A stretch of DNA of 64,000 bases from positions 15,879-79,878 of the forward strand of contig MGPS01000070.1 in the NCBI GenBank assembly GCA_001797495.1, in the 5' to 3' direction. Source of the DNA: Deltaproteobacteria bacterium GWC2_42_11 (lineage in GTDB: Bacteria > Desulfobacterota > GWC2-55-46 > UBA9637 > GWC2-42-11). The translations under genes and the position numbers were made by a program. The notes under the pieces are model-generated. The model was given only the letters and a program-made list of their open reading frames with translations, was not told the origin of the DNA and made no database searches. Positions 25,143 through 62,800 of this stretch are shown here, piece by piece; position 1 is the stretch's first letter; the number at the start of each line of letters is the position of its first letter.

Positions 25143-25259
25143 CTTATTCAGAGTGGTGGAGGGACTGGCCCTGTGAAACCACAGCAACCGGCCTGTTGCA
25201 AACGGGCGGCAGGTGCTAACTCCAGCAAGGTTTGTGATTAAAAAGCCTTGAAAGATAAG
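25143..25259 (+). promoter_or_regulatory. SAM-I (S-box) riboswitch
   Basis: P1 pairs CUUAUUCAGAG with CUUGAAAGAUAAG. Conserved cores GGUGGAGGGACUGGCCC, GUGAAACC, CAGCAACC and GGUGCUAACUCCAGCA are present. Confidence 0.85.
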
Positions 25260-25274
25260 ATTAGGTAATAAAAG

Positions 25275-25307
25275 CCTCTTCTTGATTTCAAGAAGGGGTT
25301 TTTTTTT
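25275..25307 (+). terminator. Riboswitch expression-platform terminator
   Basis: gcctcttcttga-tttc-aagaagggg hairpin followed by a T9 run. Confidence 0.7.
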
Positions 25308-25341
25308 GCAAATCATCAAAAGAAACAATAAGGAGCAGGAT

Positions 25342-26595
25342 ATGAGTTATGTAAAAGGGCTTAAATGCAGGGAATGCGGGAAGGAGTATCCGAAAGAACC
25401 CTTGCATGTATGCGAGTACTGCTTTGGTCCCCTTGAGGTTAATTATGATTATGAGAAGATCAAAAGGGCAGTAAGCAGGGATATAATATCAAAACGACAG
25501 CCGAATATGTGGAGGTACAGAGAACTCCTGCCGATAGACGGTGAGCCGGCAGTAGGTTTTGATGTAGGTTATACCCCTCTGATAAGGGCAAAAAACCTTG
25601 CGAAGGCTCTCGGTGTAAAGGAGTTATATCTGAAAAACGATGCGGTAAATTATCCGACATTATCCTTTAAAGACAGGGTTGTTGCTGTAGCAATATCAAA
25701 GGCATTGGAATTCGATTTTAAGGTTGTTGCATGTGCGTCTACAGGTAACCTTGCAAATTCTGTTGCTGCAAATGCTGCTGCCTGCGGTATGGAAAGTTAT
25801 GTGTTCATCCCTTATGACCTTGAGCAGACAAAGATTTTAGGCACGCTTGTTTACGGCACAAACCTTGTTGCAATAAAGGGTAACTATGACGAAGTAAACA
25901 GGCTGTGCAGCGAGATAGCAGGCAAGTACGGCTGGGCATTCGTAAATATAAATATAAGACCTTATTATGCAGAGGGTTCAAAGGCATTCGGCTATGAGAT
26001 TGCAGAGCAGATGGGCTGGAAACTCCCAAAGCATATTGTTGTGCCAATGGCTGGAGGTTCCCTTATCACAAAGATATGGAAGGCATTCAAGGAATTCCAC
26101 AAACTTGGACTTATTGATAATCTTGGTACAAAGGTCTATGGTGCACAGGCAACAGGGTGTGCCCCGATTACCACAGCAGTGAAGGAAGGTGCAGAACTTA
26201 TAAAGCCTGTAAAACCGAATACAATTGCAAAATCCCTTGCCATAGGAAATCCGGCAGACGGCTTTTATGCTGCAAGGGTGATGAGGGAGAGCGGCGGTTG
26301 GGGAGAGGATGTGTCAGATGAGGAAATTATTGAGTCAATCAGACTTCTTGCTGAGACAGAAGGTATCTTTACTGAGACAGCAGGCGGCGTAACACTTGGG
26401 GTTACTAGAAAACTCATTGAGCAGGGAAGGATACCAAGGGATGAATCAATAGTTGTATCAATTACAGGCAACGGACTCAAGACACAGGAGGCACTTGCAG
26501 GACGGCTAACTGTTTCTATGACAATTGATGCAAAACTTTCTGATTTTGATGAACTACTGAAAAAGCAGAATAAGGTTTATGATGCGAAAGACTAA
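25342..26595 (+). CDS. Threonine synthase family PLP enzyme with N-terminal Zn ribbon; candidate O-phosphohomoserine-dependent homocysteine synthase (MetM-like)
   Basis: SFKDR PLP-lysine motif and the ThrC fold pattern are present. Start is at MSYVKGLKCRECG behind an AAGGAG RBS. The gene sits directly behind the SAM riboswitch and upstream of sulfur-carrier genes. Confidence 0.6.
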   Translation: MSYVKGLKCRECGKEYPKEPLHVCEYCFGPLEVNYDYEKIKRAVSRDIISKRQPNMWRYRELLPIDGEPAVGFDVGYTPLIRAKNLAKALGVKELYLKNDAVNYPTLSFKDRVVAVAISKALEFDFKVVACASTGNLANSVAANAAACGMESYVFIPYDLEQTKILGTLVYGTNLVAIKGNYDEVNRLCSEIAGKYGWAFVNINIRPYYAEGSKAFGYEIAEQMGWKLPKHIVVPMAGGSLITKIWKAFKEFHKLGLIDNLGTKVYGAQATGCAPITTAVKEGAELIKPVKPNTIAKSLAIGNPADGFYAARVMRESGGWGEDVSDEEIIESIRLLAETEGIFTETAGGVTLGVTRKLIEQGRIPRDESIVVSITGNGLKTQEALAGRLTVSMTIDAKLSDFDELLKKQNKVYDAKD

Positions 26596-36805: not shown

Positions 36806-37963
36806 ATGCCAGGTTTGATTGAGCCGCATGGCGGTAAACTTGTAAACATGATACTGGAGGGAAAGGAGAGAGAAGATGCTCTAGAGAGGTCAAAGAAACT
36901 TAAGAAGGTGATTTTGAATGACAGGGAAGTTTCTGATATTGAGATGATTGCAATCGGTGCTTTCAGTCCTTTGGACGGCTTTATGAAAAGGGATGACTAC
37001 CACAGTGTTATGGACAATATGAAACTATCAAATGGTCTTCCGTGGACAATACCTATTACCCTGTCAGTTACAAATGATGAGGCAGCGGATCTGAAGGAAG
37101 GGGAAGATGTAAGCCTTGTCAATAAAGATGGGGAGATACTTGCTGTTATGCAGATTGAAGAAAAGCACAACCACGATAAGGAAAAGGAGTCGCTGCAGGT
37201 TTATGGGACAGGGGATATGGCACATCCCGGTGTTGCAAAGGTTTTTGAGATGAGAGATGTCCTGCTTGGAGGCAGGGTATCAGTTGTGCACAGGATAAAA
37301 CAGGAAAAATTTAATCAATACAGGCTTGACCCAGAAGAAACAAGGACGTTATTCAAGGAGAAGGGATGGAAAAGGGTTGTAGGTTTCCAGACAAGAAATC
37401 CTATACACAGGGCACATGAATATATCCAGAAATGTGCGATGGAGGTTGTTGACGGACTGATGATACACCCGATTGTAGGTGAGACAAAGGGTGATGATAT
37501 ATCTGCAGATGTAAGGATGAAATGCTACGAGGTTCTCCTTGAAAACTATTATCCGAAAGACAGGGTTATGCTTGTTGTTAATCCTGCAGCGATGAGGTAT
37601 GCAGGCCCAAAAGAGGCAATATTCCATGCCCTTATAAGGAAGAACTACGGTTGTACCCATTTTATTGTGGGGAGAGACCATGCAGGGGTTGGCAACTACT
37701 ACGGTTCCTTCGATGCCCATTATATATTTGATGAGTTTGACCCGCAGGAGATAGGCATAACACCGATGTTCTTTGACCATACATTCTACTGCAAAAGATG
37801 TGAAAGTATGACGTCGTACAAGACATGCCCGCATGACTCCAGTTGTCATATTACGCTTTCCGGGACAAAGGTTAGGGAGATGCTGAAGGCAGGAGTCATC
37901 CCGCCTGCTGAGTTTTCAAGACATGAGGTTGCAAAGATTTTAATAGATGCGATGAAGCAGTAG
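36806..37963 (+). CDS. sat: Sulfate adenylyltransferase (ATP sulfurylase)
   Basis: QTRNPIHRAHE and GRDHAG motifs are present. Confidence 0.9.
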   Translation: MPGLIEPHGGKLVNMILEGKEREDALERSKKLKKVILNDREVSDIEMIAIGAFSPLDGFMKRDDYHSVMDNMKLSNGLPWTIPITLSVTNDEAADLKEGEDVSLVNKDGEILAVMQIEEKHNHDKEKESLQVYGTGDMAHPGVAKVFEMRDVLLGGRVSVVHRIKQEKFNQYRLDPEETRTLFKEKGWKRVVGFQTRNPIHRAHEYIQKCAMEVVDGLMIHPIVGETKGDDISADVRMKCYEVLLENYYPKDRVMLVVNPAAMRYAGPKEAIFHALIRKNYGCTHFIVGRDHAGVGNYYGSFDAHYIFDEFDPQEIGITPMFFDHTFYCKRCESMTSYKTCPHDSSCHITLSGTKVREMLKAGVIPPAEFSRHEVAKILIDAMKQ

Positions 37964-38000: not shown

Positions 38001-38975
38001 ATGTCAAAAGGACCTATTTCAAAATTTATTGAGACGCATTATCTGCACTTTAATGCTGCTGTGCTTGTGGATGCTGCGAAGGCATACGAGTCGCATATAA
38101 ACGAACGCGGAAAGATGATGATAACCCTTGCAGGGGCAATGAGCACTGCGGAACTCGGGAAATCTCTATCTGAGATGATACGAAAGGACAAGGTTCATAT
38201 TATTACATGCACAGGTGCTAATATTGAGGAGGATGTCTTCAATCTTGTGGCACATAATTACTATAAGAGGGTTCCGCATTACCGCGAGTTAAGTCCTGAT
38301 GATGAGTGGAATCTTATGCAGGATGGTTTCAACCGTGTAACTGATACCTGTATTCCTGAAGATGAGGCAATCAGGAGGATAGAGCGCCATATATTTGACC
38401 TGTGGAAGGACGCTGACAGAAGCGGCAAAAGATATCTGCCCCATGAATATTTTTATCAGTTGTTGAAAAGCGGGGTATTAAAACAATATTATCAGATTGA
38501 CCCAAAAGACTCATGGCTTCTTACTGCATGTGAAAAGAACCTTCCTGTTATTGTGCCGGGCTGGGAAGATTCAACACTCGGAAATATCTTTGCCTCATAT
38601 TGTGTAACAGGCGAGTTAAAAGCGGTTACTGTAAAATCAGGGATAGAATACATGGTATCTCTTGCTGACTGGTACATGGAAAATTCAAAGGGGAAGGGAA
38701 TCGGCTTTTTCCAGATAGGAGGAGGTATTGCAGGTGATTTTCCAATATGTGTTGTGCCCATGCTTAGGCAGGATCTGAAAAAGGCTGATACACCTTTCTG
38801 GAGTTACTTCTGCCAGATTTCTGATTCCACAACAAGTTACGGCTCATATTCCGGCGCAGCGCCAAATGAAAAGATAACATGGGGTAAGTTGAGTAAAAAT
38901 ACACCAAGATTCATCATTGAATCAGATGCGAGTATAGTTGCACCGCTTGTGTTTGCATGGGTGCTGGGATGGTAA
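38001..38975 (+). CDS. Deoxyhypusine synthase-like protein (homospermidine synthase-like)
   Basis: Deoxyhypusine synthase family pattern (GAMSTAELG...ITCTGANIEED...GGGIAGDF). Confidence 0.65.
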   Translation: MSKGPISKFIETHYLHFNAAVLVDAAKAYESHINERGKMMITLAGAMSTAELGKSLSEMIRKDKVHIITCTGANIEEDVFNLVAHNYYKRVPHYRELSPDDEWNLMQDGFNRVTDTCIPEDEAIRRIERHIFDLWKDADRSGKRYLPHEYFYQLLKSGVLKQYYQIDPKDSWLLTACEKNLPVIVPGWEDSTLGNIFASYCVTGELKAVTVKSGIEYMVSLADWYMENSKGKGIGFFQIGGGIAGDFPICVVPMLRQDLKKADTPFWSYFCQISDSTTSYGSYSGAAPNEKITWGKLSKNTPRFIIESDASIVAPLVFAWVLGW

Positions 38976-39174: not shown

Positions 39175-40131
39175 ATGTCTTCTTATCCTTTAAGTGTAAT
39201 GCACAACTTCGGCGGTCTGGATGAGAAGGCATCCTCATTCAAAAAGGCAAAGTTTGTTGTCCTGCCTGTTCCGTATGATATGACAGCATCTTATCAGAGC
39301 GGGACAAGAAAAGGTCCGTATGCAATCATTGATGCGTCAACCCATATGGAATTATATAATGAGGAACTGGACATAGAGGCATATAAGGTCGGGATACACA
39401 CAATGCCTTATCTGGAGCCAACCTCAAAAGGTCCTAAGGAGATGGTGGATATTGTTTATGAGGCATCCAGCTATATAGTGAACTTAGATAAAATTCCGGT
39501 TATGCTCGGCGGTGAGCACAGTATAACCCTGGGGCTTGTCAGAGCGCTTAAAAAAAAATATCCGAATATGTCTGTTCTTCAACTGGATGCACATGCAGAC
39601 ATGAGGGATAAATATCAGGAAAGCCCGTATAACCATGCGTGTATTGCAAGGAGAATATCAGAGATGTGTCCGATTGTTCAGGTTGGCATAAGGAGTTTAA
39701 GTGTTGAAGAGGCAGAGTTCTTAAAAAAGGGGTTGGAACACAGAACACAGAAGTCAGAAAAAACGCATCACGCATCACACATCACGCATCACAGTATCCA
39801 TACCTATTTTGCAAAGGATATTATAAGAGGCATCCCTGTAGAGGATATATGCAGTAATCTGACGAATGAAGTTTTTATTACCATTGACCTTGATGTGTTT
39901 GACCCTTCAATTATGCCTGCAACAGGAACCCCTGAACCAGGAGGGTTGATGTGGTATGAAGTGACGGGATTATTGAGGAACATTGCTGCTAAAAAAGAGA
40001 TAATCGGTTTTGATGTGGTTGAGTTGTGCCCGCTGGCAGGTAATTTATCTCCGGATTTCCTTGCTGCAAAACTTGTTTATAAGATGATGGGATATATAGT
40101 AAAAGACAAAAAAGCAGACTATAGACTTTAA
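39175..40131 (+). CDS. speB: Agmatinase / arginase-family ureohydrolase
   Basis: Arginase-fold Mn-ligand motifs are present (GGEHSIT, DAHADM, DLDVFDPS). It carries a His-rich insertion encoded by a nucleotide repeat. Confidence 0.8.
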   Translation: MSSYPLSVMHNFGGLDEKASSFKKAKFVVLPVPYDMTASYQSGTRKGPYAIIDASTHMELYNEELDIEAYKVGIHTMPYLEPTSKGPKEMVDIVYEASSYIVNLDKIPVMLGGEHSITLGLVRALKKKYPNMSVLQLDAHADMRDKYQESPYNHACIARRISEMCPIVQVGIRSLSVEEAEFLKKGLEHRTQKSEKTHHASHITHHSIHTYFAKDIIRGIPVEDICSNLTNEVFITIDLDVFDPSIMPATGTPEPGGLMWYEVTGLLRNIAAKKEIIGFDVVELCPLAGNLSPDFLAAKLVYKMMGYIVKDKKADYRL

Positions 40132-40206: not shown

Positions 40207-40755
40207 GTGAGCATGGTGCCAAGAAGGGTATTCTTTACAAAGGGTGTAGGGACGCATAAGGAAGAACTCCATTCCTTTGAACTCGCGCTCAGGGATGCAG
40301 GCATAGAAAAACTCAATATCGTAACAGTCTCCAGCATATTCCCGCCGGGCTGTAAGGTTATTTCAAGAACTCAAGGATTAAAGATGCTTTCCCCCGGTCA
40401 GGTAACATTCTGCGTGATGAGCAGGTGCTGCAGTAACGAGCCCAGGAGGCTCATGGCAGCATCCGTAGGGTGTGCAATACCAATGGATAAAAAGGTATAT
40501 GGATACTTAAGCGAGCACCATGCCTTTGGCCAGACTGATAAGTTTGCAGGCGACTATGCAGAAGACCTTGCTGCAGCAATGCTTGCCTCCACACTGGGTA
40601 TAGAACTTGATGAGAACCTTGGGTGGGACGAGAAGAAAGAGATTTACAGGATAAGCGACAAGATAGTAAGAACAACAAACATCACGCAGTCGGCAATAGT
40701 AAAGGGTGACGGCAGGTATACAACCGTGATTGCTGCTGCTGTACTTATTCTTTAA
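40207..40755 (+). CDS. pdaD: Pyruvoyl-dependent arginine decarboxylase
   Basis: About 180 aa. The N-terminal pattern FFTKGVG...[27 protein letters not shown] matches the archaeal-type PdaD family. Confidence 0.65.
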
Positions 40756-41681
40756 TGGCAGATTTTTTCGACCTGGCGATAGCATGGGAATGGGAGTATG
40801 ACAGGGATTTCGTATGCAGTATTGACAGGGAGTGTCAGAAAAACATGCTAAGCAGTTATCTTATTTATCCGGCAAATCTTAATGAAACGCTTAATCTGCA
40901 GGCAGAAGGTAAGATTGCATTCAGGATGCTTTTTGACCGTGCATCAGACACAAACCCCAAGTTCCATGATATTATACATTTTGCAAAGAGATTCCCTTTC
41001 AAGATGGTAAATGAGGTATCTCTTTTACCAAGGGCAGTTGACAAGGCAACCATGCACCTTGAGTTTATTTCAAACGGTATCAATGTCCCTTACACGATAA
41101 TACTTTCGCCGTGGCAGAAGAATCAAGAGATTTATACCATGATGAAACTTTCTGACTTTAAAAAACTTGGTATGCCGTTTATAATAAAACCTGCACACGG
41201 CGGCGGCGGCGTTGGTGTGGTTATCGATGCAAGGACAATACAGGAGGTAGTAAAGGCAAGGATGGAAATTGCACATGATAAATATCTGCTGCAGGAGAAG
41301 ATAGTACCTGTATTTCTTGGCAAAGATTTGAGCCGCAAGGCATGGTTCAGGGTATTTTATGTATGCGGTGAGATAATCCCATGCTGGTGGAATAATGAAA
41401 CCTTCATTTACAACATGATAACATCTGATGAGGTAAAAAAGTATGATTTTTCAGAACTGCATGATATAACTAAAAAGATTGCAGATATATGCGGCCTTGA
41501 TTTTTTCTCTACAGAGATAGTAAAGGTGAAAGATGGCAGATTTATTGTTGTAGATTATGTAAATGATATGTGCGATATGAGAAGGAAATCCAGATACCCC
41601 GATGGTGTGCCTGATGAGGTAGTGGGAAAAGTTATTAAAAGACTTGTCAGATATGTGAAGGAAAATGCCAAGAAGGATTAG
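40755..41681 (+). CDS. ATP-grasp domain protein of unknown specificity
   Basis: The central IIKPAHGGGGVGV and downstream acidic residues are typical of ATP-grasp ligases. The start overlaps the pdaD stop (TAATG). Confidence 0.5.
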   Translation: MADFFDLAIAWEWEYDRDFVCSIDRECQKNMLSSYLIYPANLNETLNLQAEGKIAFRMLFDRASDTNPKFHDIIHFAKRFPFKMVNEVSLLPRAVDKATMHLEFISNGINVPYTIILSPWQKNQEIYTMMKLSDFKKLGMPFIIKPAHGGGGVGVVIDARTIQEVVKARMEIAHDKYLLQEKIVPVFLGKDLSRKAWFRVFYVCGEIIPCWWNNETFIYNMITSDEVKKYDFSELHDITKKIADICGLDFFSTEIVKVKDGRFIVVDYVNDMCDMRRKSRYPDGVPDEVVGKVIKRLVRYVKENAKKD

Positions 41682-41698
41682 ACATTTAGTAAATTAGC

Positions 41699-42721
41699 AT
41701 GAATGTTGCCATAACATACAACATAAAAAAGAAAGAGACTTTAACAGAGAATCTCCCCCCTGATTTTTATGCTGAATGGGATGATGATGAGACAATAGAC
41801 GCAATAAGGGATGCTGTCTCAAAAAGGCATGAGGTGGTTTTAATAGAGGCAGATAAAGAGGGGTATCAGAAACTTGTAAAAGAAAAACCTGATATGGTTT
41901 TTAATATTGCAGAGGGCATTAACGGCAGAAACAGGGAATCCCATATCCCTGCCATGCTGGAGATGCTCGGGATACCATATACAGGTTCAGGTCCTCTGAC
42001 ACTTGGCATCTGCCTTGATAAGGCAAGGGCAAAAGAGATACTCTCTTATTACAATATTCCAACTGCCAGATTTTTTGTATCACACTCAGCGCTCAGCGCT
42101 CAACACTCGGCGCTCTCCTTCCCCCTCATTGTCAAACCCCTTTATGAGGGTTCAAGTAAGGGCATAAGGAATGACTCTATAGTCTATAATATTGACGACC
42201 TCAATAAAAAGACTGAATGGGTCATTAACGAATACAGGCAGCCTGCCCTTGTCGAGGAATTCCTTGATGGGAGGGAGTTTACAGTCGCCGTGATGGGCAA
42301 TGGTGATGAAGTAAATTGCCTTCCTATTGTTGAAATAAATTATTCAACACTCCCTGAAGGGGTAAACCCGATTTATTCCTATGAAGCAAAGTGGCTATGG
42401 GATACACCTGATAACCCGCTGGAGATATTCACCTGTCCGGCACAGATAGAAGCCGAATTAACCCAGAGGATAGAAGAGATATGCAAAAGGGCGTTTCAGG
42501 TTCTGGACATCAAAGACTGGTGCAGGATAGATATAAGACTGGATGGTAAAGGTACTCCGCACATCCTGGAACTTAATCCGCTGCCGGGGATACTGCCTGA
42601 CCCTAAAAGTAATTCATGTTTTCCAAAGGCAGCAAGGGCTGCTGGCATGGATTACAATAGACTTATAAATACAGTACTTGATATTGCGTGTAAGAGATAT
42701 GGTATTTATGGCAACCGCTGA
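41699..42721 (+). CDS. D-alanine--D-alanine ligase family ATP-grasp protein, paralog 1
   Basis: Ddl-family motifs (GIPYTGSGPLTLGICLDK, LIVKPLYEGSSKGI, the ELNPLPG region) are present. The family tolerates an in-frame SALSAQHSALS repeat insertion. Confidence 0.65.
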   Translation: MNVAITYNIKKKETLTENLPPDFYAEWDDDETIDAIRDAVSKRHEVVLIEADKEGYQKLVKEKPDMVFNIAEGINGRNRESHIPAMLEMLGIPYTGSGPLTLGICLDKARAKEILSYYNIPTARFFVSHSALSAQHSALSFPLIVKPLYEGSSKGIRNDSIVYNIDDLNKKTEWVINEYRQPALVEEFLDGREFTVAVMGNGDEVNCLPIVEINYSTLPEGVNPIYSYEAKWLWDTPDNPLEIFTCPAQIEAELTQRIEEICKRAFQVLDIKDWCRIDIRLDGKGTPHILELNPLPGILPDPKSNSCFPKAARAAGMDYNRLINTVLDIACKRYGIYGNR

Positions 42722-43733
42722 AAAAATTACCATAACATACAATGACGATTTAGATATTGGAAGAAGGGATATTGATTGCTCAATTTCCTGCGAGGGGGTT
42801 ATTGATACAGCGATGTCCGTAAAAAAGGCGATAGAAGGGGGTGGTATAACTTTGGTACTTGTTCCATTGGAAGATAACCCTTATGCATTTATAGATACGC
42901 TCCGCCGAAGTGCACCCGATATAATCTTTAACCTGTGTGAAGGGGCATTAGGTTTGAGTTCAATGGAGATGAATGTGGCTTCTTTCTATGAACTGTTTGG
43001 CTTCAGATATACAGGTTCAGGACCTTTGACATTAGGTTTGTGCCTTAATAAGGGACTTGCCAAAAACATATTGTGTGCAAACAGCGTCCCGACGCCTGCA
43101 TATACTGTTGTTAAAGGCACAGGTTTACTTGCAGATATCGGCATAAATTTTCCGCTTATTGTAAAGCCTCTGCAGGAAGATGCAGGTATAGGCGTGGACA
43201 GCAGTGCGGTTGTGCACGATACCGAATCACTTAAAAAGAGGGTCCAATATATATTAGATGTTTGCAAACAGCCTGCACTGGTTGAGGAGTATATTAACGG
43301 GAGGGAATTCAATGTATCGGTCATGGGCAATGGAGATGATTTAAGGGTATTGCCTGTTTCGGAGATAGATTTTTCAGGACTGCCTGAAGACATGCCTCGT
43401 CTGGTTGGCTATGAGGCAAAATGGGTTGCCGCAAGCATATCTTATAAGAATACAGTACCTGTATGCCCTGCAAAGGTATCAGAAGATTTAAAAGAAAGGC
43501 TGTCGTCTATAGCAGTAAAGGCTTACAGGTTGATGGGCTGCCGTGATTATGCCAGGGTTGATATAAGGATGGGAAAGGATAATGTGCCAAAGGTGCTTGA
43601 GGTTAACCCCAACCCTGACATATCGCCTGATGCAGGTATTGCAAGAAGCGCTTTTGCAGCGGGAATGACCTACAGCACACTCATACATGAGATAATAAAA
43701 TGTGCCATGAGCAGATACGGCTGTAATGAGTGA
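42708..43733 (+). CDS. D-alanine--D-alanine ligase family ATP-grasp protein, paralog 2
   Basis: Same motif set as paralog 1 (GFRYTGSGPLTLGLCLNK, LIVKPLQEDAGIGV, EVNPNPD). Overlaps paralog 1 by 14 nt. Confidence 0.65.
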   Translation: MATAEKITITYNDDLDIGRRDIDCSISCEGVIDTAMSVKKAIEGGGITLVLVPLEDNPYAFIDTLRRSAPDIIFNLCEGALGLSSMEMNVASFYELFGFRYTGSGPLTLGLCLNKGLAKNILCANSVPTPAYTVVKGTGLLADIGINFPLIVKPLQEDAGIGVDSSAVVHDTESLKKRVQYILDVCKQPALVEEYINGREFNVSVMGNGDDLRVLPVSEIDFSGLPEDMPRLVGYEAKWVAASISYKNTVPVCPAKVSEDLKERLSSIAVKAYRLMGCRDYARVDIRMGKDNVPKVLEVNPNPDISPDAGIARSAFAAGMTYSTLIHEIIKCAMSRYGCNE

Positions 43734-43754
43734 CAGGAACAATACTGAACGGAT

Positions 43755-44231
43755 ATGGAGATACGAAAGGTTTCATCAGATGACAGGGATACAATAATCT
43801 CGATAATTAACAGAAATGTCAACTTTACAGCAGAAGAAAAAGATTGTGCTGCTGAACTTCTGGATATTTATCTCGGAAATCCATGTCAGAATGACTATGA
43901 CTTCTTCTGTGCAGTAAATGAAGGTAATAAGGTTATTGGATACATCTGCTACGGCAGAGTCCCTTTAACAGAATCCACCTATGACCTCTACTGGATAGTT
44001 GTTGACCCTCTGTTCCATAGCATGGGGATTGGCAAAATGCTTGTCAATTATCTTGAAAGTATGTTAATAAATATCAGGGCAAGAATGCTTCTGGCAGAGA
44101 CATCATCAAGGTCAGATTATTACAAAACCAGGGTTTTCTATGAACAGAATAGTTTTACAGAGGCAGCAAGGATAAAGGATTTTTACAGGGCAGGCGACGA
44201 TAAAATAATATATAAAAAGACTTTTGTTTGA
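43755..44231 (+). CDS. GNAT-family N-acetyltransferase
   Basis: Acetyl-CoA binding pattern (HSMGIGKMLVNYLE). Confidence 0.6.
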   Translation: MEIRKVSSDDRDTIISIINRNVNFTAEEKDCAAELLDIYLGNPCQNDYDFFCAVNEGNKVIGYICYGRVPLTESTYDLYWIVVDPLFHSMGIGKMLVNYLESMLINIRARMLLAETSSRSDYYKTRVFYEQNSFTEAARIKDFYRAGDDKIIYKKTFV

Positions 44232-44283
44232 TAAATAATAGAGAGAGGTATTAGTAAATACGGTTTTTTTTAAAGGAGGAGTT

Positions 44284-44904
44284 GTGTTGGAAACAGAAAC
44301 AATAAAAAAGATATATGCGGGCTATTCAAATGCATATGATGCAATCTTTAAAAGGTTCTTTTTCCCGAGAATAAAACATGCCATTGCAACTATGGATATA
44401 AGACATGGCGACAAGGTTCTGGATGTCGGCGTTGGTACAGGTCTTTCCCTCCCTCTGTTCCCCAGATACTGTGATGTTACCGGAATAGATATATCTTCCG
44501 CTATGTTAAAAAAAGCAAAGGAAAAGACAAACAAACTGAATTTGAACCACATTGAACTCATGGAAATGGACGCTATGAACCTGGAATTTCCTGATAACAG
44601 TTTCGACAAGGTCTTTATATCCCATGTTGTAAGCGTCGTACCTGACCCTTATAAAACAATGTCAGAGGTAAAGAGGGTATGCAAGAGAAATGGGAAAATC
44701 GTTGTAGTCAATCATTTCAGGAGTCCTAACAAAATGGTTGGGAGTGTTGTAAGGATGCTGAACCCTATAACGAAAAAGATAGGCTGGAGGACAGACCTGT
44801 CTTTAGACGAGTTTATAAAAAAAGCAAACTTATGTGTAGAAAAGAAATATAAATTGAAGAAGATAGACCTCTGGTATGTTATATTCGCCGTGAATGAAAA
44901 ATAA
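44284..44904 (+). CDS. Class I SAM-dependent methyltransferase
   Basis: Motif I VLDVGVGTG is followed by an acidic residue and post-I and II motifs. Confidence 0.7.
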   Translation: MLETETIKKIYAGYSNAYDAIFKRFFFPRIKHAIATMDIRHGDKVLDVGVGTGLSLPLFPRYCDVTGIDISSAMLKKAKEKTNKLNLNHIELMEMDAMNLEFPDNSFDKVFISHVVSVVPDPYKTMSEVKRVCKRNGKIVVVNHFRSPNKMVGSVVRMLNPITKKIGWRTDLSLDEFIKKANLCVEKKYKLKKIDLWYVIFAVNEK

Positions 44905-45421
44905 GCCAATCCCTGACAAGCCGTATATATGTCCTGATGCGGACATAACCATCCTTCCCATGTCCCGCAATGATATTGATGAAATTCTAGAAATAGAAAA
45001 TGTGTCTTTCCCTGGACCGTGGTCAATGTCCATTTTTGAAAAAGAACTCAAAAACCCCTTTTCTTTTCCGTTTGTGGCACGATTTGATAAGACTGAAACC
45101 AAGACCATTGCCGGATATATAATAGTCTGGCTTGTCGCAGAAGAGGCGCATATATTAAACCTTGCTGTCCATCCTGATTTCAGGAGAAAGGGGATAGCCC
45201 GATTACTGCTGGAATTCATGCTGGACTTTCTTGCCGGAAGGTCTGCAAGGGTTGTGTATCTGGAGGTGAGGAGGTCAAATATTTCAGCACAAAGACTTTA
45301 CATGGGTTTTGGTTTCAGCGAGATAGGAGTCAGGAAGGAATATTATTCTGACAATAAGGAAGATGCTATAGTTATGGGGCTTGAGATGGCTTGCAAAAGC
45401 AGGGCAGCAAAGGTCGTATGA
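44894..45421 (+). CDS. RimI-like GNAT acetyltransferase
   Basis: RimI-like pattern (IENVSFPGPWS...ILNLAVHPDFRRKGIARLLL). Confidence 0.6.
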   Translation: MKNKPIPDKPYICPDADITILPMSRNDIDEILEIENVSFPGPWSMSIFEKELKNPFSFPFVARFDKTETKTIAGYIIVWLVAEEAHILNLAVHPDFRRKGIARLLLEFMLDFLAGRSARVVYLEVRRSNISAQRLYMGFGFSEIGVRKEYYSDNKEDAIVMGLEMACKSRAAKVV

Positions 45422-46302
45422 TATCAGAGGTTCTTTATAATAAAAATGTATTACCGTCTTATTACAAACTGGGGCTTGCTGTTGGGAGAGAATTTGACGG
45501 TGCTGTGCCGGGACAGTTTGTTATGCTGAGGATAAGCGGACAATTAGACCCGTTTTTGCGCAGACCTTTTGGAATATACAAAAGGTGGGATCAAAAGATA
45601 GGATCACCCCGTTTAGATGGGTCAAAGGCGGGTGCCCTCTGGGCGCGGTCAAGCAGCAAAGGGCAAAAGATAGAGATACTTTATAAGGTAGTAGGGAAAG
45701 GCACAGGGATTATGTCAGGACTAAAAATAGGTGATAGGGTTGATATTCTTGGACCCTTTGGTAATACATTCCCTTCAGCAGAGAGAAATAAAAACATTAT
45801 TATGGTAGCAGGCGGTATAGGTATTGTGCCGTTTTACCTCCTTGCCAAAGGGTGCAAGAAAACATGGGTTGGGTTGAAACTTCTGTTTGGCGGAAAAAGC
45901 AAGGAAGACCTCCCTGGTCTGGATGATTTTAAAAAACTTAAGATTGATGTGTCTGTTTCCACAGATGATGGCAGCGTGGGAGAGAAGGGCATGGTAACAA
46001 AACTTCTCTTGAAGGAGTTATTAGGAAGGGATTTAAGTTCAGCAGTTGTATATGCATGCGGCACAAAACCAATGCTCAAGACAGTTGCAGATATAGCAGA
46101 TAGAAACAACATTCCGTGTTATGTTTCCCTTGATAATGTAATGGCTTGCGGTATAGGTGCATGTCTTGGGTGTGCTGTAAAAGTAACGGGGTCAAAGGTT
46201 CAAGGAGTCAAGGGGTATAGAAACAACTCACAACTCTACAAGATGGTTTGCAAGGACGGGCCTATATTTGATGCAAGGGATATAGATTGGGAAGCGATAT
46301 GA
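45418..46302 (+). CDS. pyrK: Dihydroorotate dehydrogenase electron-transfer subunit
   Basis: FAD/NAD-binding fold with C-terminal [2Fe-2S] cysteines (CGIGACLGC). Start is at MISEVL. It contains a ~25-aa low-complexity insertion. Confidence 0.75.
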   Translation: MISEVLYNKNVLPSYYKLGLAVGREFDGAVPGQFVMLRISGQLDPFLRRPFGIYKRWDQKIGSPRLDGSKAGALWARSSSKGQKIEILYKVVGKGTGIMSGLKIGDRVDILGPFGNTFPSAERNKNIIMVAGGIGIVPFYLLAKGCKKTWVGLKLLFGGKSKEDLPGLDDFKKLKIDVSVSTDDGSVGEKGMVTKLLLKELLGRDLSSAVVYACGTKPMLKTVADIADRNNIPCYVSLDNVMACGIGACLGCAVKVTGSKVQGVKGYRNNSQLYKMVCKDGPIFDARDIDWEAI

Positions 46303-47231
46303 AAAAGGGCAAAGGGCAAGAGATAAATTTATCTGTAACCATCGCAGGGATAGAACTTAAAAATCCTGTGATGACAGCATCAGGCACATTCGGGTACGGT
46401 GAGGAATTCAGCCCCTTTGTTGACTTTAATAAACTTGGCGCTGTTGTTGTGAAAGGGCTATCCCTTAAACCAAGGCAGGGCAACCCATCTCCAAGGATTG
46501 TTGAGACACCGGCAGGTATGCTTAATGCCATAGGGCTTCAGAATGTTGGTGTTGAAGTATTTATAAAAGAGAAACTTCCGTTTTTAAGAAAATATAATGT
46601 GCCTGTGATTGCAAATATCTTTGGCGAGAATGTCAGAGAATATGCAGAGGTGGCAAAAAGGCTTGATGAAACAGATGGCATTGCAGGTCTTGAAATAAAC
46701 ATATCCTGTCCAAATGTAAAAAAGGGCGGCATTGTATTCGGCATAAATCCGAAAGAATCTGCAAAGGTAATAAGGGCTGTAAAGAAGGCAACTCGGTTTC
46801 CTGTTGTTACCAAACTCTCCCCGAATGTTACGGATATAAAAGTCATGGCAAAGGCTGCGGAGGATGCAGGAAGCGATGCTATATCCCTTATCAATACTAT
46901 CACAGGCATGGCAATTGATGTTGAAACAAGGAAACCTAAACTGGCAAATATTACAGGCGGGCTGTCAGGTCCGGCAATAAGACCAATTGCTGTGAGGATG
47001 GTTTGGGAGGCTGCAAAGGTTGTTAAAATTCCGATTATCGGCATAGGCGGCATAATGACAGCCAGTGACGCCCTTGAGTTTATAATAGCAGGTGCAGCAG
47101 CAGTTCAGATAGGCACAGCAAACTTTGTTGAGCCTGATGCAGCGATAAAGATACTTGAAGGGATTAAGGACTACTGCATGAGGCATGGGGTTAAAAGATT
47201 GAAGGGACTGATAAGGAGTTTAGGTAGTTGA
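46299..47231 (+). CDS. pyrD: Dihydroorotate dehydrogenase catalytic subunit (class 1B)
   Basis: NPVMTASGTFGYG, LEINISCPN and IGIGGI motifs are present. Confidence 0.85.
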   Translation: MKKGKGQEINLSVTIAGIELKNPVMTASGTFGYGEEFSPFVDFNKLGAVVVKGLSLKPRQGNPSPRIVETPAGMLNAIGLQNVGVEVFIKEKLPFLRKYNVPVIANIFGENVREYAEVAKRLDETDGIAGLEINISCPNVKKGGIVFGINPKESAKVIRAVKKATRFPVVTKLSPNVTDIKVMAKAAEDAGSDAISLINTITGMAIDVETRKPKLANITGGLSGPAIRPIAVRMVWEAAKVVKIPIIGIGGIMTASDALEFIIAGAAAVQIGTANFVEPDAAIKILEGIKDYCMRHGVKRLKGLIRSLGS

Positions 47232-55210: not shown

Positions 55211-55753
<543 letters not shown>

Positions 55754-55865
55754 AACATTCATGAGCCTTTGGCTTGCAAAAGATGATGAAAATCTGTAGT
55801 CGCACCCTTTATGGGTGCGTTTGCGCAGGCATAAAGCCTGCGGCTACCATTATTAGGATTTTCAG

Positions 55866-56789
55866 ATGAAACTCAATAGAAAGGACATACTCAGCATAGA
55901 AGATTTAACAAAGGAAGAGATAGAACTCGTCCTGAAGACTGCCGAATCATTTAAAGAGGTGTCTGAAAGGGATATCAAGAAGGTCCCTACGTTGCGCGGC
56001 AAAACTATTATTAACCTATTTTACGAGCCATCCACAAGGACAAGGACATCTTTTGAGATTGCTGCCAAGAGAATGAGTGCGGATGCTATAAATATATCTG
56101 CTTCATCCAGCAGTGTTGTGAAGGGCGAGACATTGAAAGATACTGCAAAAAACCTTGAGGCAATGAATCCTGACTGCATTGTCCTGAGGCATTCCTTCAG
56201 CGGCGCGCCACATATTCTGGCAGGTCTGGTAAAGTGTTCTGTTATAAATGCAGGGGATGGGTGCCATGAGCATCCAAGTCAGGCGCTGCTTGATATGCTG
56301 ACGGTTAAGGAAAAACTCGGAAGGATAGAAGGATTAAAGATTGCAATAATAGGCGACATCCTGCACTCAAGGGTTGCAAGAAGCAATATCTACGGCTTTA
56401 CAAAACTCGGTGCAGAGGTAAGGGCTGCCGGGCTTCCGACAATGATGCCGTGCAGGATTGAGCAGATGGGCTGCAGGGTATTTTACAATATGGAAGATGC
56501 TATTAAAGATTCAGATGTAATAATGATGTTAAGAATACAACTGGAGAGGCAGAATGCCGCACTATTTCCCACAGTCAGGGAATACTCAAAACTCTTTGGT
56601 CTGGATTCAAAAAAACTTGAGATGGCAAAGAAGGATGTAATTATCCTTCATCCAGGACCAATAAACAGGGGTGTTGAAATTTCATCGGATGTTGCAGATG
56701 GAAGGTCATCACTTATACTTGATCAGGTTACAAACGGTGTGGCTGTGAGGATGGCTTTGTTTTATCTCCTGCTTGGGAGGGAGTTATGA
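55866..56789 (+). CDS. pyrB: Aspartate carbamoyltransferase catalytic subunit
   Basis: STRTR carbamoyl-phosphate motif and HPxQ are present. Confidence 0.9.
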
Positions 56790-58072
56790 GTAAACTTCTA
56801 ATAAAAGGCGGGCATGTTGTTGACCCTGCAAATGGGATTGACGGGATATTTGATGTTTATTGTGTTGACGGCAAAATCGTTGAAATCACGCATCACGCAT
56901 CCCGCATCACGCACAACGATTGCACTGTCATAGATGCAACGGGTCTTCATGTTTTCCCGGGTTTTATTGACATGCACACGCATTTAAGAGAGCCGGGCTA
57001 TGAATATAAAGAGGACATAAGAACAGGCACAATGGCAGCAGCAGCAGGAGGTTTTACATCTGTTGCATGTATGGCAAATACTGACCCTGTTAATGACAAT
57101 TCATCTGTTACAAGATATATCCTGAAAAAGGCACAGGAAGAGGGTATTGTAAATGTCTTTCCTGTTGGTGCAGTAAGTAAAGGTTTAAAAGGTGAGATAC
57201 TTGCAGAGATTAGCGATTTGAAAGATGCGGGATGTGTTGCGATTTCAGATGACGGCAAGCCTGTTTCTGACAGCAGGTTGATGAGGCTGGCACTGGAATA
57301 TTCAAAACCTTTTAATCTGCCTGTTATATCCCACTGCGAGGATTTAACCCTTGCAGGGGATGGTGTTATGAACGAAGGTTTTATTTCTACAAAACTGGGT
57401 TTAAAGGGCATCCCGAATGCAGCAGAGGATATTATGGTTGCAAGGGATATTGCCCTTGCAGAACTTACACACGGGAAACTGCACATTGCCCATGTATCTG
57501 CATCTGGGAGTGTTGAACTTATAAGAAATGCCAAGTCAAGAGGTGTAAATGTTACAGCAGAGGTTACGCCGCACCACTTTACACTAACAGATGAATGTGT
57601 AACCGGCTACAACACCAATGCAAAGATGAACCCTCCGCTTCGCAGTATTAGTGATATAGAGGCATTGAAACAGGGGCTTAAACACGGAACAATAGATGTC
57701 ATTGCAACAGACCATGCACCACAGAATGCTGATGAAAAGGATGTGGAATTTGATAAGGCAGCAAACGGTGTTGTTGGACTTGAGACTGCATTCTCACTTT
57801 CTTTAAAACTCGTTTCAGACGGGCTTATTTCATTATCTGTCCTGATTGAAAAAATCTCTCTAAACCCTTCAAGGATTTTAGGGCTTGATAAAAAAGGCTC
57901 TCTAAAAGTCGGCAATGATGCTGATATAACGATTGTGGATTTAAATAAGGAATGGTTTGTTGATGTAAATAAATTAAAATCAAAGAGCAAAAATACTCCG
58001 TTTGAAAACTGGAAGATGAAAGGTAAAGTTGTGAAGACAATAGTTGGAGGGAAGGTGGTGTATGAGGGATAG
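56786..58072 (+). CDS. pyrC: Dihydroorotase (multifunctional-complex type)
   Basis: [10 protein letters not shown] metal-binding motif. It contains an in-frame CATCACGCATCACGCATC repeat coding [10 protein letters not shown]. Confidence 0.85.
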
Positions 58073-59240
58073 GAATAAGGCAGTCCTTGCACTTGCAGAC
58101 GGCACTGTATTTGAAGGTTATTCATTCGGCGCTGAAGGTGAGTCAATAGGTGAGGTAGTTTTCAATACCTCAATGACAGGGTATCAGGAAATTTTAACTG
58201 ACCCGTCTTATAAAGGACAGATTGTTACAATGACCTATACCCAGATTGGAAATTACGGGATAAATAGTGAGGATATTGAATCAGCAAGACCATGGATTGA
58301 AGGATTTATTGTAAAGGAATTTTGCCAATATCCAAGCAACTGGCGTTCAAAAGAGACTCTGGATAGTTATCTAAAAAGGCACAATATTGTTGGGATACAC
58401 GGAATAGATACAAGGGCTTTGACAAAGCATTTAAGGGATAATGGCGCTATGAATGGGGTTATATCAACTGTTGATTTGGACCCAGAAAGACTTGTTAAAA
58501 AGGCAAAGGGATTTCCATCCATGGCAGGGCTTGACCTTGCAAAAGAGGTAACATGCAAAGAGCCATATAAATTGAAGCAGGGTTTGTGGAATATAGAAAG
58601 AGGTTACTCATCACTCAGCACTCATCACTCGCCACTCTATAAGGTGGTTGCATATGACTTTGGCATAAAATACAACATCCTCCGAAACCTTGTTAATGTC
58701 GGGTGTGATGTTACAGTTGTGCCTGCATGGACATCTGCTGATGATGTTTTGAAGATGAACCCGGACGGCGTATTCCTTTCAAATGGCCCCGGCGACCCTG
58801 ATGCAGTTAAATACGCAATTGAGAATGTGAGAAAACTCATTGGCAAAAAACCAATATTTGGAATCTGTCTCGGACATCAGATACTTGGGCTTGCTCTTGG
58901 CGGAAAGACATATAAACTAAAATTCGGTCATCGCGGGGGCAATCAGCCTGTTATGGATTTAACAACAAGAAAGGTTGAGATTACATCCCAGAATCACGGC
59001 TTTGCAGTTGATGTTAATTCTTTAAAAGGCATTGCTGAACTTACACATATAAACCTAAATGACAAAACAGTTGAAGGGCTTGCACACAAAAAACTACCGC
59101 TATTTTCTGTCCAGTATCATCCAGAGGCATCGCCAGGTCCGCATGATGCAAGTTATCTTTTCAAAAGGTTTGTGGATTTGATGGAGGGTAAATGGTCATT
59201 GAATTTAAGCCTTTCAATGCAGGCTTTGAAGAATGCTTAA
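58062..59240 (+). CDS. carA: Carbamoyl-phosphate synthase small subunit
   Basis: Class I GATase triad region (GICLGHQ). It contains an in-frame CTCATCACTCAGCACTCATCAC repeat. Confidence 0.85.
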
Positions 59241-59845
59241 AAGAGTTTAAAGACTATTTTATAAATGAGACATTTGCCGAAGAGATAAAACTTGCAAAAG
59301 AAGAATTTACAAATTCTGGCATAGATTTAAATGAGGGTGAGAATTATGAGGAAAGGCTTAGTATATTTTTTGACTGGTATCTGTTTGACAGACCATTGTC
59401 AGATACAAATCTAACCCCTGTCAGATATTTTGTTGAAACCCTTTCAAACAAAGGAGATATATACGATGGATTTTCAAAAACCATACAAAGCATATTTGTT
59501 ATAAAGCGGAGGGGTATTGGATATGTAAAGGTAAAGGATATGTTTACAAGAAAAAAATATATAGTGAATGGCGATAATCTTATAGGTTTTGAAAAGAGGG
59601 ATATAATGGAGGCAAGGCTTATCCCGTTTGAGAGGTCTTACAGATTTTCAGAGACATTCTGTTTTTATCCTGATGATATAAAGACTATGCTGAAAAAAGA
59701 GATAAAAGAGGCAAAAAAACAGGAAGAGGCAGACTTTTATCCTGTTTTATTAAAGTTTAGAAGATTAAAAACCATGTCAGAGAGATTTACAAGGATGGAT
59801 ATAAAAAAGGTTTATACCTTAATGGAGGAAGGATTGCTTGCCTAA
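59192..59845 (+). CDS. Hypothetical protein encoded between carA and carB
   Basis: A 217-aa ORF with no recognisable domain. It overlaps the carA 3' end by ~49 nt and its stop overlaps the carB start. Confidence 0.35.
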
Positions 59846-62800
59846 ACGAACTGACATAAAAAAAATACTCATCATCGGCGCGGGACCTATTGTCATAGGC
59901 CAGGCATGCGAGTTTGACTATTCAGGCACGCAGGCGTGCAAGGCTCTAAAAGAAGAGGGTTATAAGGTCATCCTCATCAACTCAAACCCTGCGACCATTA
60001 TGACTGACCCGGAGATTGCTGACAGGACATATATTGAGCCGATTACGCCTGAAATAGTTGAAAAAATCATTGAGAAGGAAAGACCTGATGCAATCCTTCC
60101 GACTATGGGCGGACAGACCGCGCTCAATACAGCGGTGGCTCTGGCGGAATCCGGCGTTTTGGAAAAATATCATGTTGAGCTCATCGGCGCTAAACTCCAT
60201 GCAATAAAAAAGGCAGAAGACAGGGAACTCTTTAAAGAGGCAATGGAAAGGATTGGTCTTGAGGTGCCAAGAAGCGGTTATGCAAAGACCCTGACAGATG
60301 CAATGAGTATAATGGAGACCATGGATTATCCTGCAATCATAAGGCCATCTTTTACACTCGGCGGCACAGGCGGCGGTATCGCATATAACAGCGAGGAATT
60401 TAAGGACATGGTTCAGTATGGACTGGATGCAAGCCCGTATAGCGAAATCCTCATTGAAGAATCTGTAATAGGCTGGAAGGAATATGAACTGGAGGTTATG
60501 AGGGATGGTAAGGACAATGTTGTTATTATCTGTTCAATAGAGAATTTTGACCCTATGGGAGTCCATACAGGGGATTCCATAACTGTTGCGCCTGCCCAGA
60601 CATTAACAGATAAGGAATATCAGATAATGAGGGATGCGGCACTCAAGATTATAAGGGAAATCGGTGTTGATACAGGAGGCTCAAACATCCAATTTTCTGT
60701 TAATCCTCAAAATGGGAAGATGCATGTGATTGAGATGAACCCCAGGGTTTCCCGCTCATCTGCACTTGCAAGCAAGGCAACCGGTTTTCCTATTGCAAAG
60801 ATTGCCGCAAAACTTGCGGTAGGATATACGCTTGATGAGATTCCCAATGACATAACAAAAAAGACACCTGCCTCATTTGAGCCGACAATTGACTATGTGG
60901 TCACAAAGGTTCCGAGGTTTACATTTGAAAAATTTCCTGAGGCGGATGCTATACTCACAACACAGATGAAGTCTGTGGGAGAGGTAATGGCAATAGGAAG
61001 GACATTTAAAGAGTCTTTACAGAAGGCACTCAGGTCGCTTGAGATAGGGAGTTATGGGTTTGAAGAAAGGGTTCAAGGGGTCGGGGGTTCAAGGGTTAAG
61101 GAAGAGATTACTGAAAAACTCAGGACACCTAATTGGGAGAGGCTTTGGTATATTGCAGATGCCTTCAGAGCAGGCATGACTGTTGATGAGATATTTGATT
61201 TATCAAAGGTTGACAGGTGGTTTCTGAATAATATAAGGGAGATTGTGGAGTTTGAGAGTGAGTTAGAGAGTTTAGGAGTAAAAGAAAAGACAGTTAAGGA
61301 GTCAACTCCTCAACTCCTCAACTCATTACGGCAGGCAAAAGAACTTGGATTTTCTGACAAACGGATAGCACAGTTATCAGGTAAAACCGAAGCAGAAATA
61401 AGAGAGGCGAGAAAACAGGCAGGGGTTGAGCCTGTATATAAGACAGTTGATACATGCGGCGCAGAGTTTGAGGCATATACACCGTATCTGTATTCTGCAT
61501 ATGAAAAACCATTTTATAGCATAGAGCATGGAGCAGAGAGCAAAGAGCAAAAGAAATATCCCTATGCCCTATGCCCTATGCCCTATGCGCTTACTGTTGC
61601 TTGTGAATCCAACCCCACCACCCGCAAAAAAGTCATAATCCTCGGCAGTGGTCCCAATAGAATCGGTCAGGGCATTGAGTTTGATTACTGCTGTGTCCAT
61701 GCAGCATTTGCATTAAAGGAAGATGGCATCGAGACCATAATGGTAAACTGCAATCCTGAGACAGTATCAACTGATTATGACACTTCTGACAGGCTCTATT
61801 TCGAACCCCTCACATTTGAAGATGTTATGAACATAATTGAAAAGGAGAAACCTTTTGGCGTTATTGTCCAGTTCGGCGGGCAGACGCCTTTAAAACTTGC
61901 AGTGTCTCTGGAAAAGGCTGGAGTAAAAATCCTCGGCACATCGCCTGATTCCATTGATATCGCAGAAGACAGGGAAAGGTTTGACAAACTCCTCACAAAA
62001 CTAAATCTAAAAAGACCTGAAAGCGGCATTGCCCGTTCAATTGATGAGGCAATAAAGGTTGCAAATAAAATTGGGTATCCTGTTATGGTAAGACCTTCCT
62101 ATGTACTCGGCGGAAGGGCGATGGAGATAGTCTATACAGAGGAGAGTTTAAAGGACTACATGAAAAGGGCTGTTGAGGCATCCCCTGAACACCCTGTCCT
62201 GATTGATAAATTTTTAAACAATGCAACAGAGGTGGATGTTGACTGCGTTTCTGATGGTAAGGATATTGTTATTGGTGGTATTATGGAGCATATTGAAGAG
62301 GCAGGCATACATTCAGGTGATTCGGCATGCTCAATACCGCCGTATTCTCTTGATTTAAATATCATTGATGAGATAAGAAGGCAGACAATTTTGCTTGCAA
62401 AAGAATTAAATGTAATAGGACTAATGAATGTCCAGTTTGCAGTGAAAAAAAATCCCCCCATCCCCCCCTTTGAAAAAGGGGAGATTGAGGGGGGATTAAA
62501 CAAGGGGCAAGGGTCAGAAATATATGTTCTTGAGGTTAACCCAAGGGCATCAAGGACTGTTCCATTTGTAAGCAAGGCAATAGGAAAACCCCTTGCAAAG
62601 ATTGCTGCAAAGGTTATGGCAGGTAAGACCCTTAAGGAATTAGATTTCACAAAAGAGATTGTGCCAGGGCATATTTCTGTAAAGGAATCTGTCTTTCCAT
62701 TTATAAAATTTCCGGGTGTTGATACGATCCTTGGTCCTGAGATGAAGTCAACAGGAGAGGTAATGGGCATAGATAAAGATTTCGGCAGGGCATTTGCAAA

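Follow-up and report, generated by a model that had tools for sequence, protein, structure and literature searches.

A conserved pair of Ddl-like ATP-grasp ligases with an N-acetyltransferase, found beside polyamine genes in a deltaproteobacterial genome

We analyzed a 64,000-nucleotide stretch of the genome of Deltaproteobacteria bacterium GWC2_42_11 (contig MGPS01000070.1, positions 15,879 to 79,878 of the forward strand; hereafter the window), in which pdaD, the gene for a pyruvoyl-dependent arginine decarboxylase, is followed by three ATP-grasp ligase genes, two acetyltransferase genes and one methyltransferase gene (Table 1). Two of the ligases, Ddl1 and Ddl2, are paralogs that resemble D-alanine-D-alanine ligases (Ddl), and the gene behind them encodes a small GNAT acetyltransferase. 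We are highly confident that these three genes represent a conserved ligase cassette that does not belong to peptidoglycan synthesis. The cassette encodes uncharacterized ATP-dependent amide ligases. Its product may be a dipeptide that is capped with agmatine or a polyamine and then modified further, a reading that we put forward tentatively.

Conservation of the Ddl1-Ddl2-GNAT unit

One genome per species was scanned with an alignment of Ddl1 relatives. These relatives were found in at least 588 species from roughly ten phyla, and the best 80 of the at least 588 loci were compared. In the 80 loci, Ddl1 is 53-70% identical to the protein of the window and is the best-conserved gene of the core. 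The loci derive from metagenome-assembled genomes (MAGs) of 'Deltaproteobacteria'/Thermodesulfobacteriota, and from Nitrospinota, Acidobacteriota, Ignavibacteriota, Bacteroidota, Chlorobiaceae, Planctomycetia, Wallbacteria and Desulfuromonadales; Lentisphaerae, Riflebacteria and Melioribacter were found among the matches to the GNAT. Cultured carriers include Desulfuromonas versatilis and Geoalkalibacter species, and many carriers come from sediment, groundwater, freshwater or soil.

Ddl2 is located beside Ddl1 in 76 of the 80 loci, and the GNAT gene accompanies the cassette, after Ddl2, in 68, most of the misses being contig ends. A KamA-family aminomutase of the radical S-adenosylmethionine (SAM) type was found with the cassette in 50 loci, pdaD directly upstream of the ligases in 24, and a methyltransferase in 19. 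The commonest architecture is Ddl1-Ddl2-GNAT-aminomutase (44 of 80). A survey of this gene order in related genomes had been suggested by an earlier reading of the window made from its sequence alone (the sequence-only reading). The survey bore out the conservation of Ddl1-Ddl2-GNAT and recovered the association with pdaD in a minority of loci, but the most frequent partner, the aminomutase, had not been foreseen and is absent from the window.

The architecture of the window itself, pdaD-Ddl1-Ddl2-GNAT-methyltransferase-RimI-pyrK-pyrD, which may be preceded by a deoxyhypusine synthase (DHS) gene and an agmatinase gene, occurs only in a single group of 'Deltaproteobacteria' MAGs from groundwater and sediment. 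We found this gene order again in 20-odd other species with protein identities of 55-70%, and the arrangement is therefore more than chance. The agmatinase gene lies upstream of pdaD in 15 of the 24 related pdaD-linked loci.

No other gene family proved to be conserved around the core: where recG, recJ or a response regulator recurs, it does so within a single lineage. We therefore conclude that the unit is Ddl1-Ddl2-GNAT, not six genes. The six open reading frames (ORFs) that the sequence-only reading had described as one array are real, all lie on the + strand and are spaced by -14 to +52 nt; its observation that the two Ddl-like genes overlap by exactly 14 nt was likewise correct (the Ddl2 ATG is at 42708, and the Ddl1 TGA ends at 42721). 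What did not hold up is the array as a unit, since RimI is local to one lineage and the first ATP-grasp gene stands at the cassette only in the window and in 3 of the 24 pdaD-linked loci (L010-L012).

The GNAT of the cassette is a clear homolog of the protein in PDB entry 2R7H (E = 4e-29 over 145 residues), a structural-genomics GNAT from Desulfovibrio; the source strain may be a further cultured carrier. The name of that entry, 'putative D-alanine N-acetyltransferase', is a guess by the depositors, and the only paper mentioning the entry uses it for structural comparison. On the RimI model TIGR01575 the GNAT scored 45.2 bits, below the cut-off of 86.4. The methyltransferase behind it aligned over its full length with its top NCBIfam model, the phospholipid N-methyltransferase PmtA (NF045882), at 144.4 bits (cut-off 390), and is thus only distantly PmtA-like. 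Because it follows the GNAT in 19 of the 24 pdaD-linked loci and the two form a fusion in L010 (the nearest relative that we examined, with a Ddl1 identity of 70%), the methyltransferase belongs to the cassette in the pdaD-linked lineage. The fusion protein (L010:8143-9327, + strand) has 394 residues, with the GNAT at 3-155 and the methyltransferase at 190-394; it is the sole case seen, and an assembly error or a lost stop codon could also account for it.

A variant of the cassette was observed at L055:2336-6830. It lacks the GNAT, and behind Ddl1-Ddl2 it has two methyltransferases with two GT4 glycosyltransferases between them. Such a locus may point to a form of the system that is linked to glycoconjugates.

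Substrate sites of the two ligases

The closest sequence matches of both proteins are D-Ala-D-Ala ligases (E of about 1e-32 for Ddl1 and 1e-24 for Ddl2), the top structural matches of an AlphaFold2 model of Ddl1 are the same enzymes, and databases name these proteins D-alanine--D-alanine ligase. These matches and names, together with the label of the PDB homolog of the GNAT, could suggest that one or both paralogs are D-Ala-D-X ligases for peptidoglycan precursors, either as a housekeeping Ddl or as a Van-like enzyme. We consider this hardly credible. Both proteins scored below the cut-off of every curated NCBIfam model for Ddl, Van and D-Ala-D-Ser ligases: Ddl1 reached 192.2 bits and Ddl2 146.8 bits on NF002378 (cut-off 243), and 159.3 and 117.1 bits, respectively, on TIGR01205 (cut-off 245.65). 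Furthermore, the paralogs are closer to each other (39% identity) than to Escherichia coli DdlB (34% for Ddl1, 28% for Ddl2).

We aligned 82 Ddl1 and 72 Ddl2 sequences to E. coli DdlB (PDB 2DLN/1IOV). The ATP-grasp fold and all checked catalytic and Mg/ATP residues (DdlB K97, K144, E180, E187, K215, R255, D257, E270 and N272) are common to DdlB, the Van ligases and the proteins of the cassette, and these residues are invariant in all 82 Ddl1 and 72 Ddl2 sequences. Therefore, both ligases are probably active, and the expected chemistry would be that of Ddl, an acyl-phosphate intermediate followed by formation of an amide bond.

The substrate-binding residues differ from those of a true Ddl in both paralogs. 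We take E15, S150 and Y216 of DdlB to form the donor site, in which E15 holds the donor ammonium, and S281 and L282 to form the acceptor carboxylate site, in which S281 holds the carboxylate. At these five positions Ddl1 has E, S, W, S and C, and Ddl2 has a variable residue, A, W, A and G. Ddl1 thus keeps E15, S150 and S281, and Y216W, H63E and L282C are invariant in its 82 sequences. In Ddl2, Y216W and H63E are invariant too, E15 is variable, and G149D, S150A, G276D, S281A and L282G are at least 96% conserved among the 72 sequences. The sequence-only reading had called for a comparison of the pocket with that of true Ddl, and this alignment to DdlB supplies it. Unlike in Ddl, the N-terminal domain of Ddl1 and Ddl2 is shortened and a 4-residue insertion precedes S281.

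The genomic context points in the same direction. The ligases of the cassette occur as a paralog pair whose constant partners are the GNAT and an aminomutase or an arginine decarboxylase. No mur genes were found in the window or in survey loci with annotated flanks. No Mur ligase and no further Ddl homolog was found in the 64-kb window by Pfam and tblastn searches of most ORFs of at least 150 aa; for the genes at 54.5-59.8 kb this negative relies on the existing annotation of an overlapping contig, and it does not extend to the ORF at 22195-22857 (- strand). The scores below cut-off, the altered substrate residues and the GNAT partner in about ten phyla together indicate that this is not a peptidoglycan Ddl locus, as the sequence-only reading had claimed from the missing mur genes, and we conclude that the core is not a housekeeping D-Ala-D-Ala ligase. 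The label D-alanine--D-alanine ligase is thus very probably wrong for thousands of proteins and would mislead annotation of cell-wall synthesis and vancomycin resistance.

Partner genes and the proposed pathway

Residues D293, D330 and K337 of lysine 2,3-aminomutase, numbered as in the Clostridium structure 2A5H, are retained in the aminomutases of the cassette, and the best NCBIfam model for these enzymes is lys_2_3_AblA (TIGR03820), on which they score 468-521 bits and just miss the cut-off of 525.4. The retained residues and the preference for the AblA model make beta-lysine the likely product.

The Nitrospinota genomes, in which the cassette is rearranged and often split, indicate which partner goes with which ligase. 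One module, pdaD-Ddl2-GNAT, was found in L090 (with nadE before pdaD), L098, L100 and L101; another, aminomutase-Ddl1, in L056 (with lepA-lepB before the aminomutase), L076 and L082; and the combined form, pdaD-Ddl2-GNAT-aminomutase-Ddl1, in L027 and L099. From these splits it follows that the aminomutase pairs with Ddl1 and the arginine decarboxylase with Ddl2 and the GNAT. Additionally, a speA-CASDH-CASDC-agmatinase operon lies next to the cassette, in divergent orientation, in a Lentisphaerae genome. SpeA is a pyridoxal phosphate (PLP)-dependent enzyme and is not homologous to the pyruvoyl-dependent PdaD, and with two non-homologous arginine decarboxylases beside one cassette, inherited synteny alone is hard-pressed as an explanation. 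The idea of the sequence-only reading that the array acts on agmatine or polyamine products of its neighbors gained support from both observations.

In Nitrospinota, the gene for a glutamine-dependent NAD synthetase, nadE, lies directly upstream of pdaD (L027:2774-4492 and L090:194-1936). The nadE gene of the window (22998-24833, - strand) lies about 15 kb upstream and on the opposite strand, and this placement may be a remnant of a shared ancestral synteny.

From these partners and the substrate residues, we propose as a plausible though tentative reading that Ddl1 makes a dipeptide, Ddl2 caps it with agmatine or a polyamine, and N-acetylation and methylation follow. Ddl1 would condense two amino-acid-type substrates, to which its retained donor-ammonium and acceptor-carboxylate residues point. 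One of the two would probably be beta-lysine, because a KamA-type aminomutase is the most frequent companion of the three core genes and remains next to Ddl1 where the cassette has come apart. Ddl2 would activate the free carboxylate of the Ddl1 product and join it to a carboxylate-free amine, for which agmatine is the likeliest candidate and a polyamine derived from it the alternative; the loss of the Ddl substrate residues in Ddl2 and its gain of invariant aspartates suggest such an acceptor. The GNAT would acetylate a remaining free amine, and in the pdaD-linked lineage the methyltransferase would then methylate another group. We expect the resulting peptide-amine conjugate to be small, cationic and capped and not to be part of the cell wall; it could serve as an osmolyte, a polyamine-like metabolite or a storage form of polyamines.

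The closest analogy for the proposed Ddl2 step is glutathionylspermidine synthetase. In glutathionylspermidine and trypanothione synthetases, an ATP-grasp-type domain links a peptide carboxylate to a polyamine amine. ATP-dependent activation of a peptide carboxylate and its capture by a polyamine-type amine correspond to what we propose for Ddl2. The cassette lacks an amidase domain, however, and showed no detectable sequence kinship with these enzymes in any search, so that the analogy is one of mechanism only.

That an N-capped beta-lysyl (or lysyl) peptide in amide linkage to agmatine or a polyamine is made in at least 588 species of about ten phyla, as a hitherto unknown class of metabolite, is possible but lies on the doubtful side. 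If true, the cassette would yield a 'peptidyl-polyamine' independent of the ribosome and of nonribosomal peptide synthetases and tied to core polyamine metabolism. It would also open a new branch of polyamine and beta-lysine metabolism in bacteria and extend Ddl-type enzymes to a new class of substrates.

Several points weigh against the polyamine-capping proposal. We infer the residue roles from E. coli DdlB at only 28-34% identity, and the omega-loop region of the Ddl1 model is unreliable, with a predicted local distance difference test (pLDDT) score below 50 at residues 196-249. No KamA homolog was found in the window, and no aminomutase near the cassette in the pdaD-linked lineage; nor is one present on the contig downstream of the window, where a putative phosphonate-binding protein, a sensor histidine kinase and a cytochrome c are encoded. 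No position separated the pdaD-linked from the aminomutase-linked lineage at a threshold of 90%. With no aminomutase nearby and no consistent lineage substitution in Ddl1, the pdaD-linked lineage must either encode the enzyme at another place or do without beta-lysine as an obligatory substrate. Similarly, none of the 44 Ddl1-Ddl2-GNAT-aminomutase loci has a polyamine gene within 8 kb, so that agmatine either comes from elsewhere or is not the substrate. The speA case is that of one organism, and the adjacency of pdaD here and in Nitrospinota could be a single inherited event; in the same region the synteny of pyrK-pyrD is inherited and clearly not functional. In addition, we found no publication on the cassette in the literature. 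As a lineage-discriminating residue, position 216 of Ddl1 (S versus D) was considered and rejected, since the difference is not strict.

Some of these points would fit a different product, namely an N-acetylated peptide of two or three residues built on beta-lysine, which might be a compatible solute like N-epsilon-acetyl-beta-lysine or N-acetylglutaminylglutamine amide (NAGGN); pdaD would then be inherited synteny, and agmatine and polyamines would be uninvolved. We regard this as unlikely, if a serious alternative. It agrees with the dominant architecture and its lack of polyamine genes, with the lysine-binding aspartates of the aminomutase, with the likewise conserved but unrelated housekeeping neighbors in the pdaD-linked lineage, and with the cultured carriers Desulfuromonas and Geoalkalibacter, which we take to be marine or haloalkaliphilic. 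It does not explain why pdaD stays with Ddl2 and the GNAT after the rearrangement in Nitrospinota, or why the cassette of a Lentisphaerae genome borders on an operon for a non-homologous arginine decarboxylase. Furthermore, Ddl2 lacks the serine for an acceptor carboxylate and has gained invariant aspartates, which fits an amine acceptor better than an amino acid, and many carriers are from freshwater, groundwater or soil.

Like AblA/AblB, which produce N-epsilon-acetyl-beta-lysine, most carriers pair a KamA-family aminomutase with a GNAT. However, the window has no aminomutase, those of the other carriers remain below the AblA cut-off, the GNAT has no match to the AblB family, and the two ATP-grasp ligases would be superfluous in the Abl pathway. 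With the Ngg/AsnO system for NAGGN, the cassette shares a GNAT and the formation of peptide bonds by ATP-grasp enzymes, which there leads to an N-acetylated small peptide. Yet RimI was the sole match to the Ngg model TIGR03103 in a scan of ten proteins, with 15.9 bits where the cut-off is 569, and the cluster has neither a GNAT-ATP-grasp fusion nor an asnO-type amidotransferase. Mycosporine clusters place a sugar-phosphate cyclase (DDGS/EEVS) and an O-methyltransferase beside a MysD-type Ddl-like ligase; no such cyclase was annotated in the window or in the related loci. The resemblance to NAGGN and mycosporine cassettes that the sequence-only reading had noted therefore fails on every feature that could be tested.

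A further possibility, which we judge improbable, is that the ligases modify a macromolecule: the C-terminal or a side-chain carboxylate of a protein, as RimK does on S6 and LysX on LysW, or peptidoglycan or a glycan uronic acid. The high identity of Ddl1 across phyla might be read in this way, although Ddl1 is no better conserved than PyrD at the same loci. A peptide or protein as carboxylate donor would also be expected to leave Ddl2 without a conserved residue for a free donor alpha-amino group, as is the case. The housekeeping neighbors RimI, lepA-lepB, recG and recJ and the RimK-like ligase inserted in the window would suit such a role, but no gene for a substrate (a small carrier protein, efp or a ribosomal protein) is conserved beside the cassette in the 80 loci. 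An aminomutase for free lysine and an arginine decarboxylase rather suggest small-molecule building blocks. The glycosyltransferases of the variant described above could argue for a glycan, but they link the cassette to one at a single locus. Modification of EF-P by an analog of EpmAB was considered as well; neither linkage to efp or another substrate gene nor any published support was found, and it survives only as part of the macromolecular alternative.

The gene string and other features of the window

The proposed pathway genes are embedded in a longer string of co-directional genes (Table 1). From pdaD onward to pyrD, the gaps between successive genes are -1, 17, -14, 21, 52, -11, -4 and -4 nt, the 4-nt overlaps at pyrK and pyrD being counted from the gene-caller starts at 45418 (pyrK) and 46299 (pyrD). 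At a TAATG junction, pdaD and the first ATP-grasp gene overlap by 1 nt, and pdaD is translationally coupled to this next gene. We found no convincing intrinsic terminator inside the string, and Rfam scans of the window and eight related loci revealed no riboswitch adjoining the cassette.

Table 1. Genes of the co-directional string in the window, with the model scores on which their assignment is based (bits).
Gene or product	Coordinates	Strand	Evidence and remarks
sat	36806-37963	+	Member of the co-directional string
Deoxyhypusine-synthase-like protein, divergent type	38001-38975	+	Pfam DS 139
Agmatinase, speB-type ureohydrolase	39175-40131	+	TIGR01230 233.9 (cut-off 174.3)
pdaD, pyruvoyl-dependent arginine decarboxylase (makes agmatine)	40207-40755	+	NF009064 222.8 (equivalog cut-off 207)
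RimK/LysX-like ATP-grasp protein, divergent	40755-41681	+	Pfam RimK 22.7; TIGR00768 rimK_fam 49.2 (cut-off 143.4)
Ddl1 (Ddl-like 1)	41699-42721	+	Pfam Dala_Dala_lig_C 130
Ddl2 (Ddl-like 2)	42708-43733	+	Pfam Dala_Dala_lig_C 105
Small GNAT	43755-44231	+	Pfam Acetyltransf_1
Class-I SAM methyltransferase	44284-44904	+	Methyltransf_11 91.6
RimI, ribosomal protein S18-alanine N-acetyltransferase	44894-45421	+	TIGR01575 133.1 (equivalog cut-off 86.4)
pyrK-pyrD, dihydroorotate dehydrogenase B subunits	45391-47231	+	Pfam DHODB_Fe-S_bind and NCBIfam pyrK models; DHO_dh on identical contigs

The first ATP-grasp protein aligns end to end with the rimK_fam model (E = 4e-13), in which it resembles RimK, LysX and MptN. 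It differs from them in its score below the TIGR00768 cut-off, in its membership of a small family of its own, which has 407 representatives in 1.84 billion proteins, and in the absence of an S6- or LysW-type substrate gene nearby. Elsewhere its homologs are solitary genes in unrelated neighborhoods. The gene appears to be a lineage-specific insertion whose role in the pathway is uncertain, and a single-sequence AlphaFold2 model (pLDDT 31) was uninformative. Two homologs, P0381 (908 aa) and P0367 (439 aa), are fused to an M3 oligopeptidase or a GNAT domain, which points to peptides or N-acyl amino acids as substrates of the family; the fused GNAT showed no specific kinship to either GNAT of the window.

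RimI adjoins the cassette only in the pdaD-linked lineage, where it is always followed by pyrK-pyrD. It is probably a bystander, because it scores above the equivalog cut-off for the S18 acetyltransferase and keeps company with the core only in this lineage, as pyrK and pyrD do. These two are co-directional housekeeping bystanders at the end of the string. The pyrimidine genes of the window are split: others follow about 8 kb further on (55217-63266), with a phosphoribosyltransferase gene (pyrR/upp-like), pyrB, pyrC, carA and carB, and a DUF7986 gene lies between carA and carB.

Upstream of pdaD, the DHS-like gene and the agmatinase gene are the context of a polyamine operon, and the DHS-like gene is outside the ligase core. 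On each of the NCBIfam models for DHS and homospermidine, the DHS-like protein of the window scored near 107 bits, far below the cut-off, and its counterpart in most sister genomes shares only 21-25% identity with it. Other pdaD-linked genomes have a different DHS type, of which one (L021:5395-6447) reaches the NF002006 cut-off (434.6 versus 434). Thus, two different DHS-like genes share one position in the operon. The agmatinase contains a histidine-rich insertion in the middle of the protein (HRTQKSEKTHHASHITHHSIH).

A block of sulfur-assimilation genes runs directly into the polyamine and ligase genes. A SAM riboswitch (25141-25261, + strand, 81.5 bits) lies just upstream of a gene for a PLP-dependent enzyme (25282-26595), and genes for a sulfite-reductase-like protein, a second PALP enzyme, ThiF, a radical SAM protein, a Na/sulfate symporter and Usp follow, and then cysC, a GAF-GGDEF gene, cysH and sat.

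Two further RNA elements were observed far upstream of the cassette. A fluoride riboswitch (14267-14328, + strand, 62.3 bits) precedes a gene of the Na+/H+-exchanger family (14373-15533) and not one for a crcB- or eriC-type exporter. A 6S RNA (9436-9615, + strand, 84.1 bits) lies immediately upstream of the gene for 5-formyltetrahydrofolate cyclo-ligase (9978-10583), which is the classic ssrS-ygfA arrangement.

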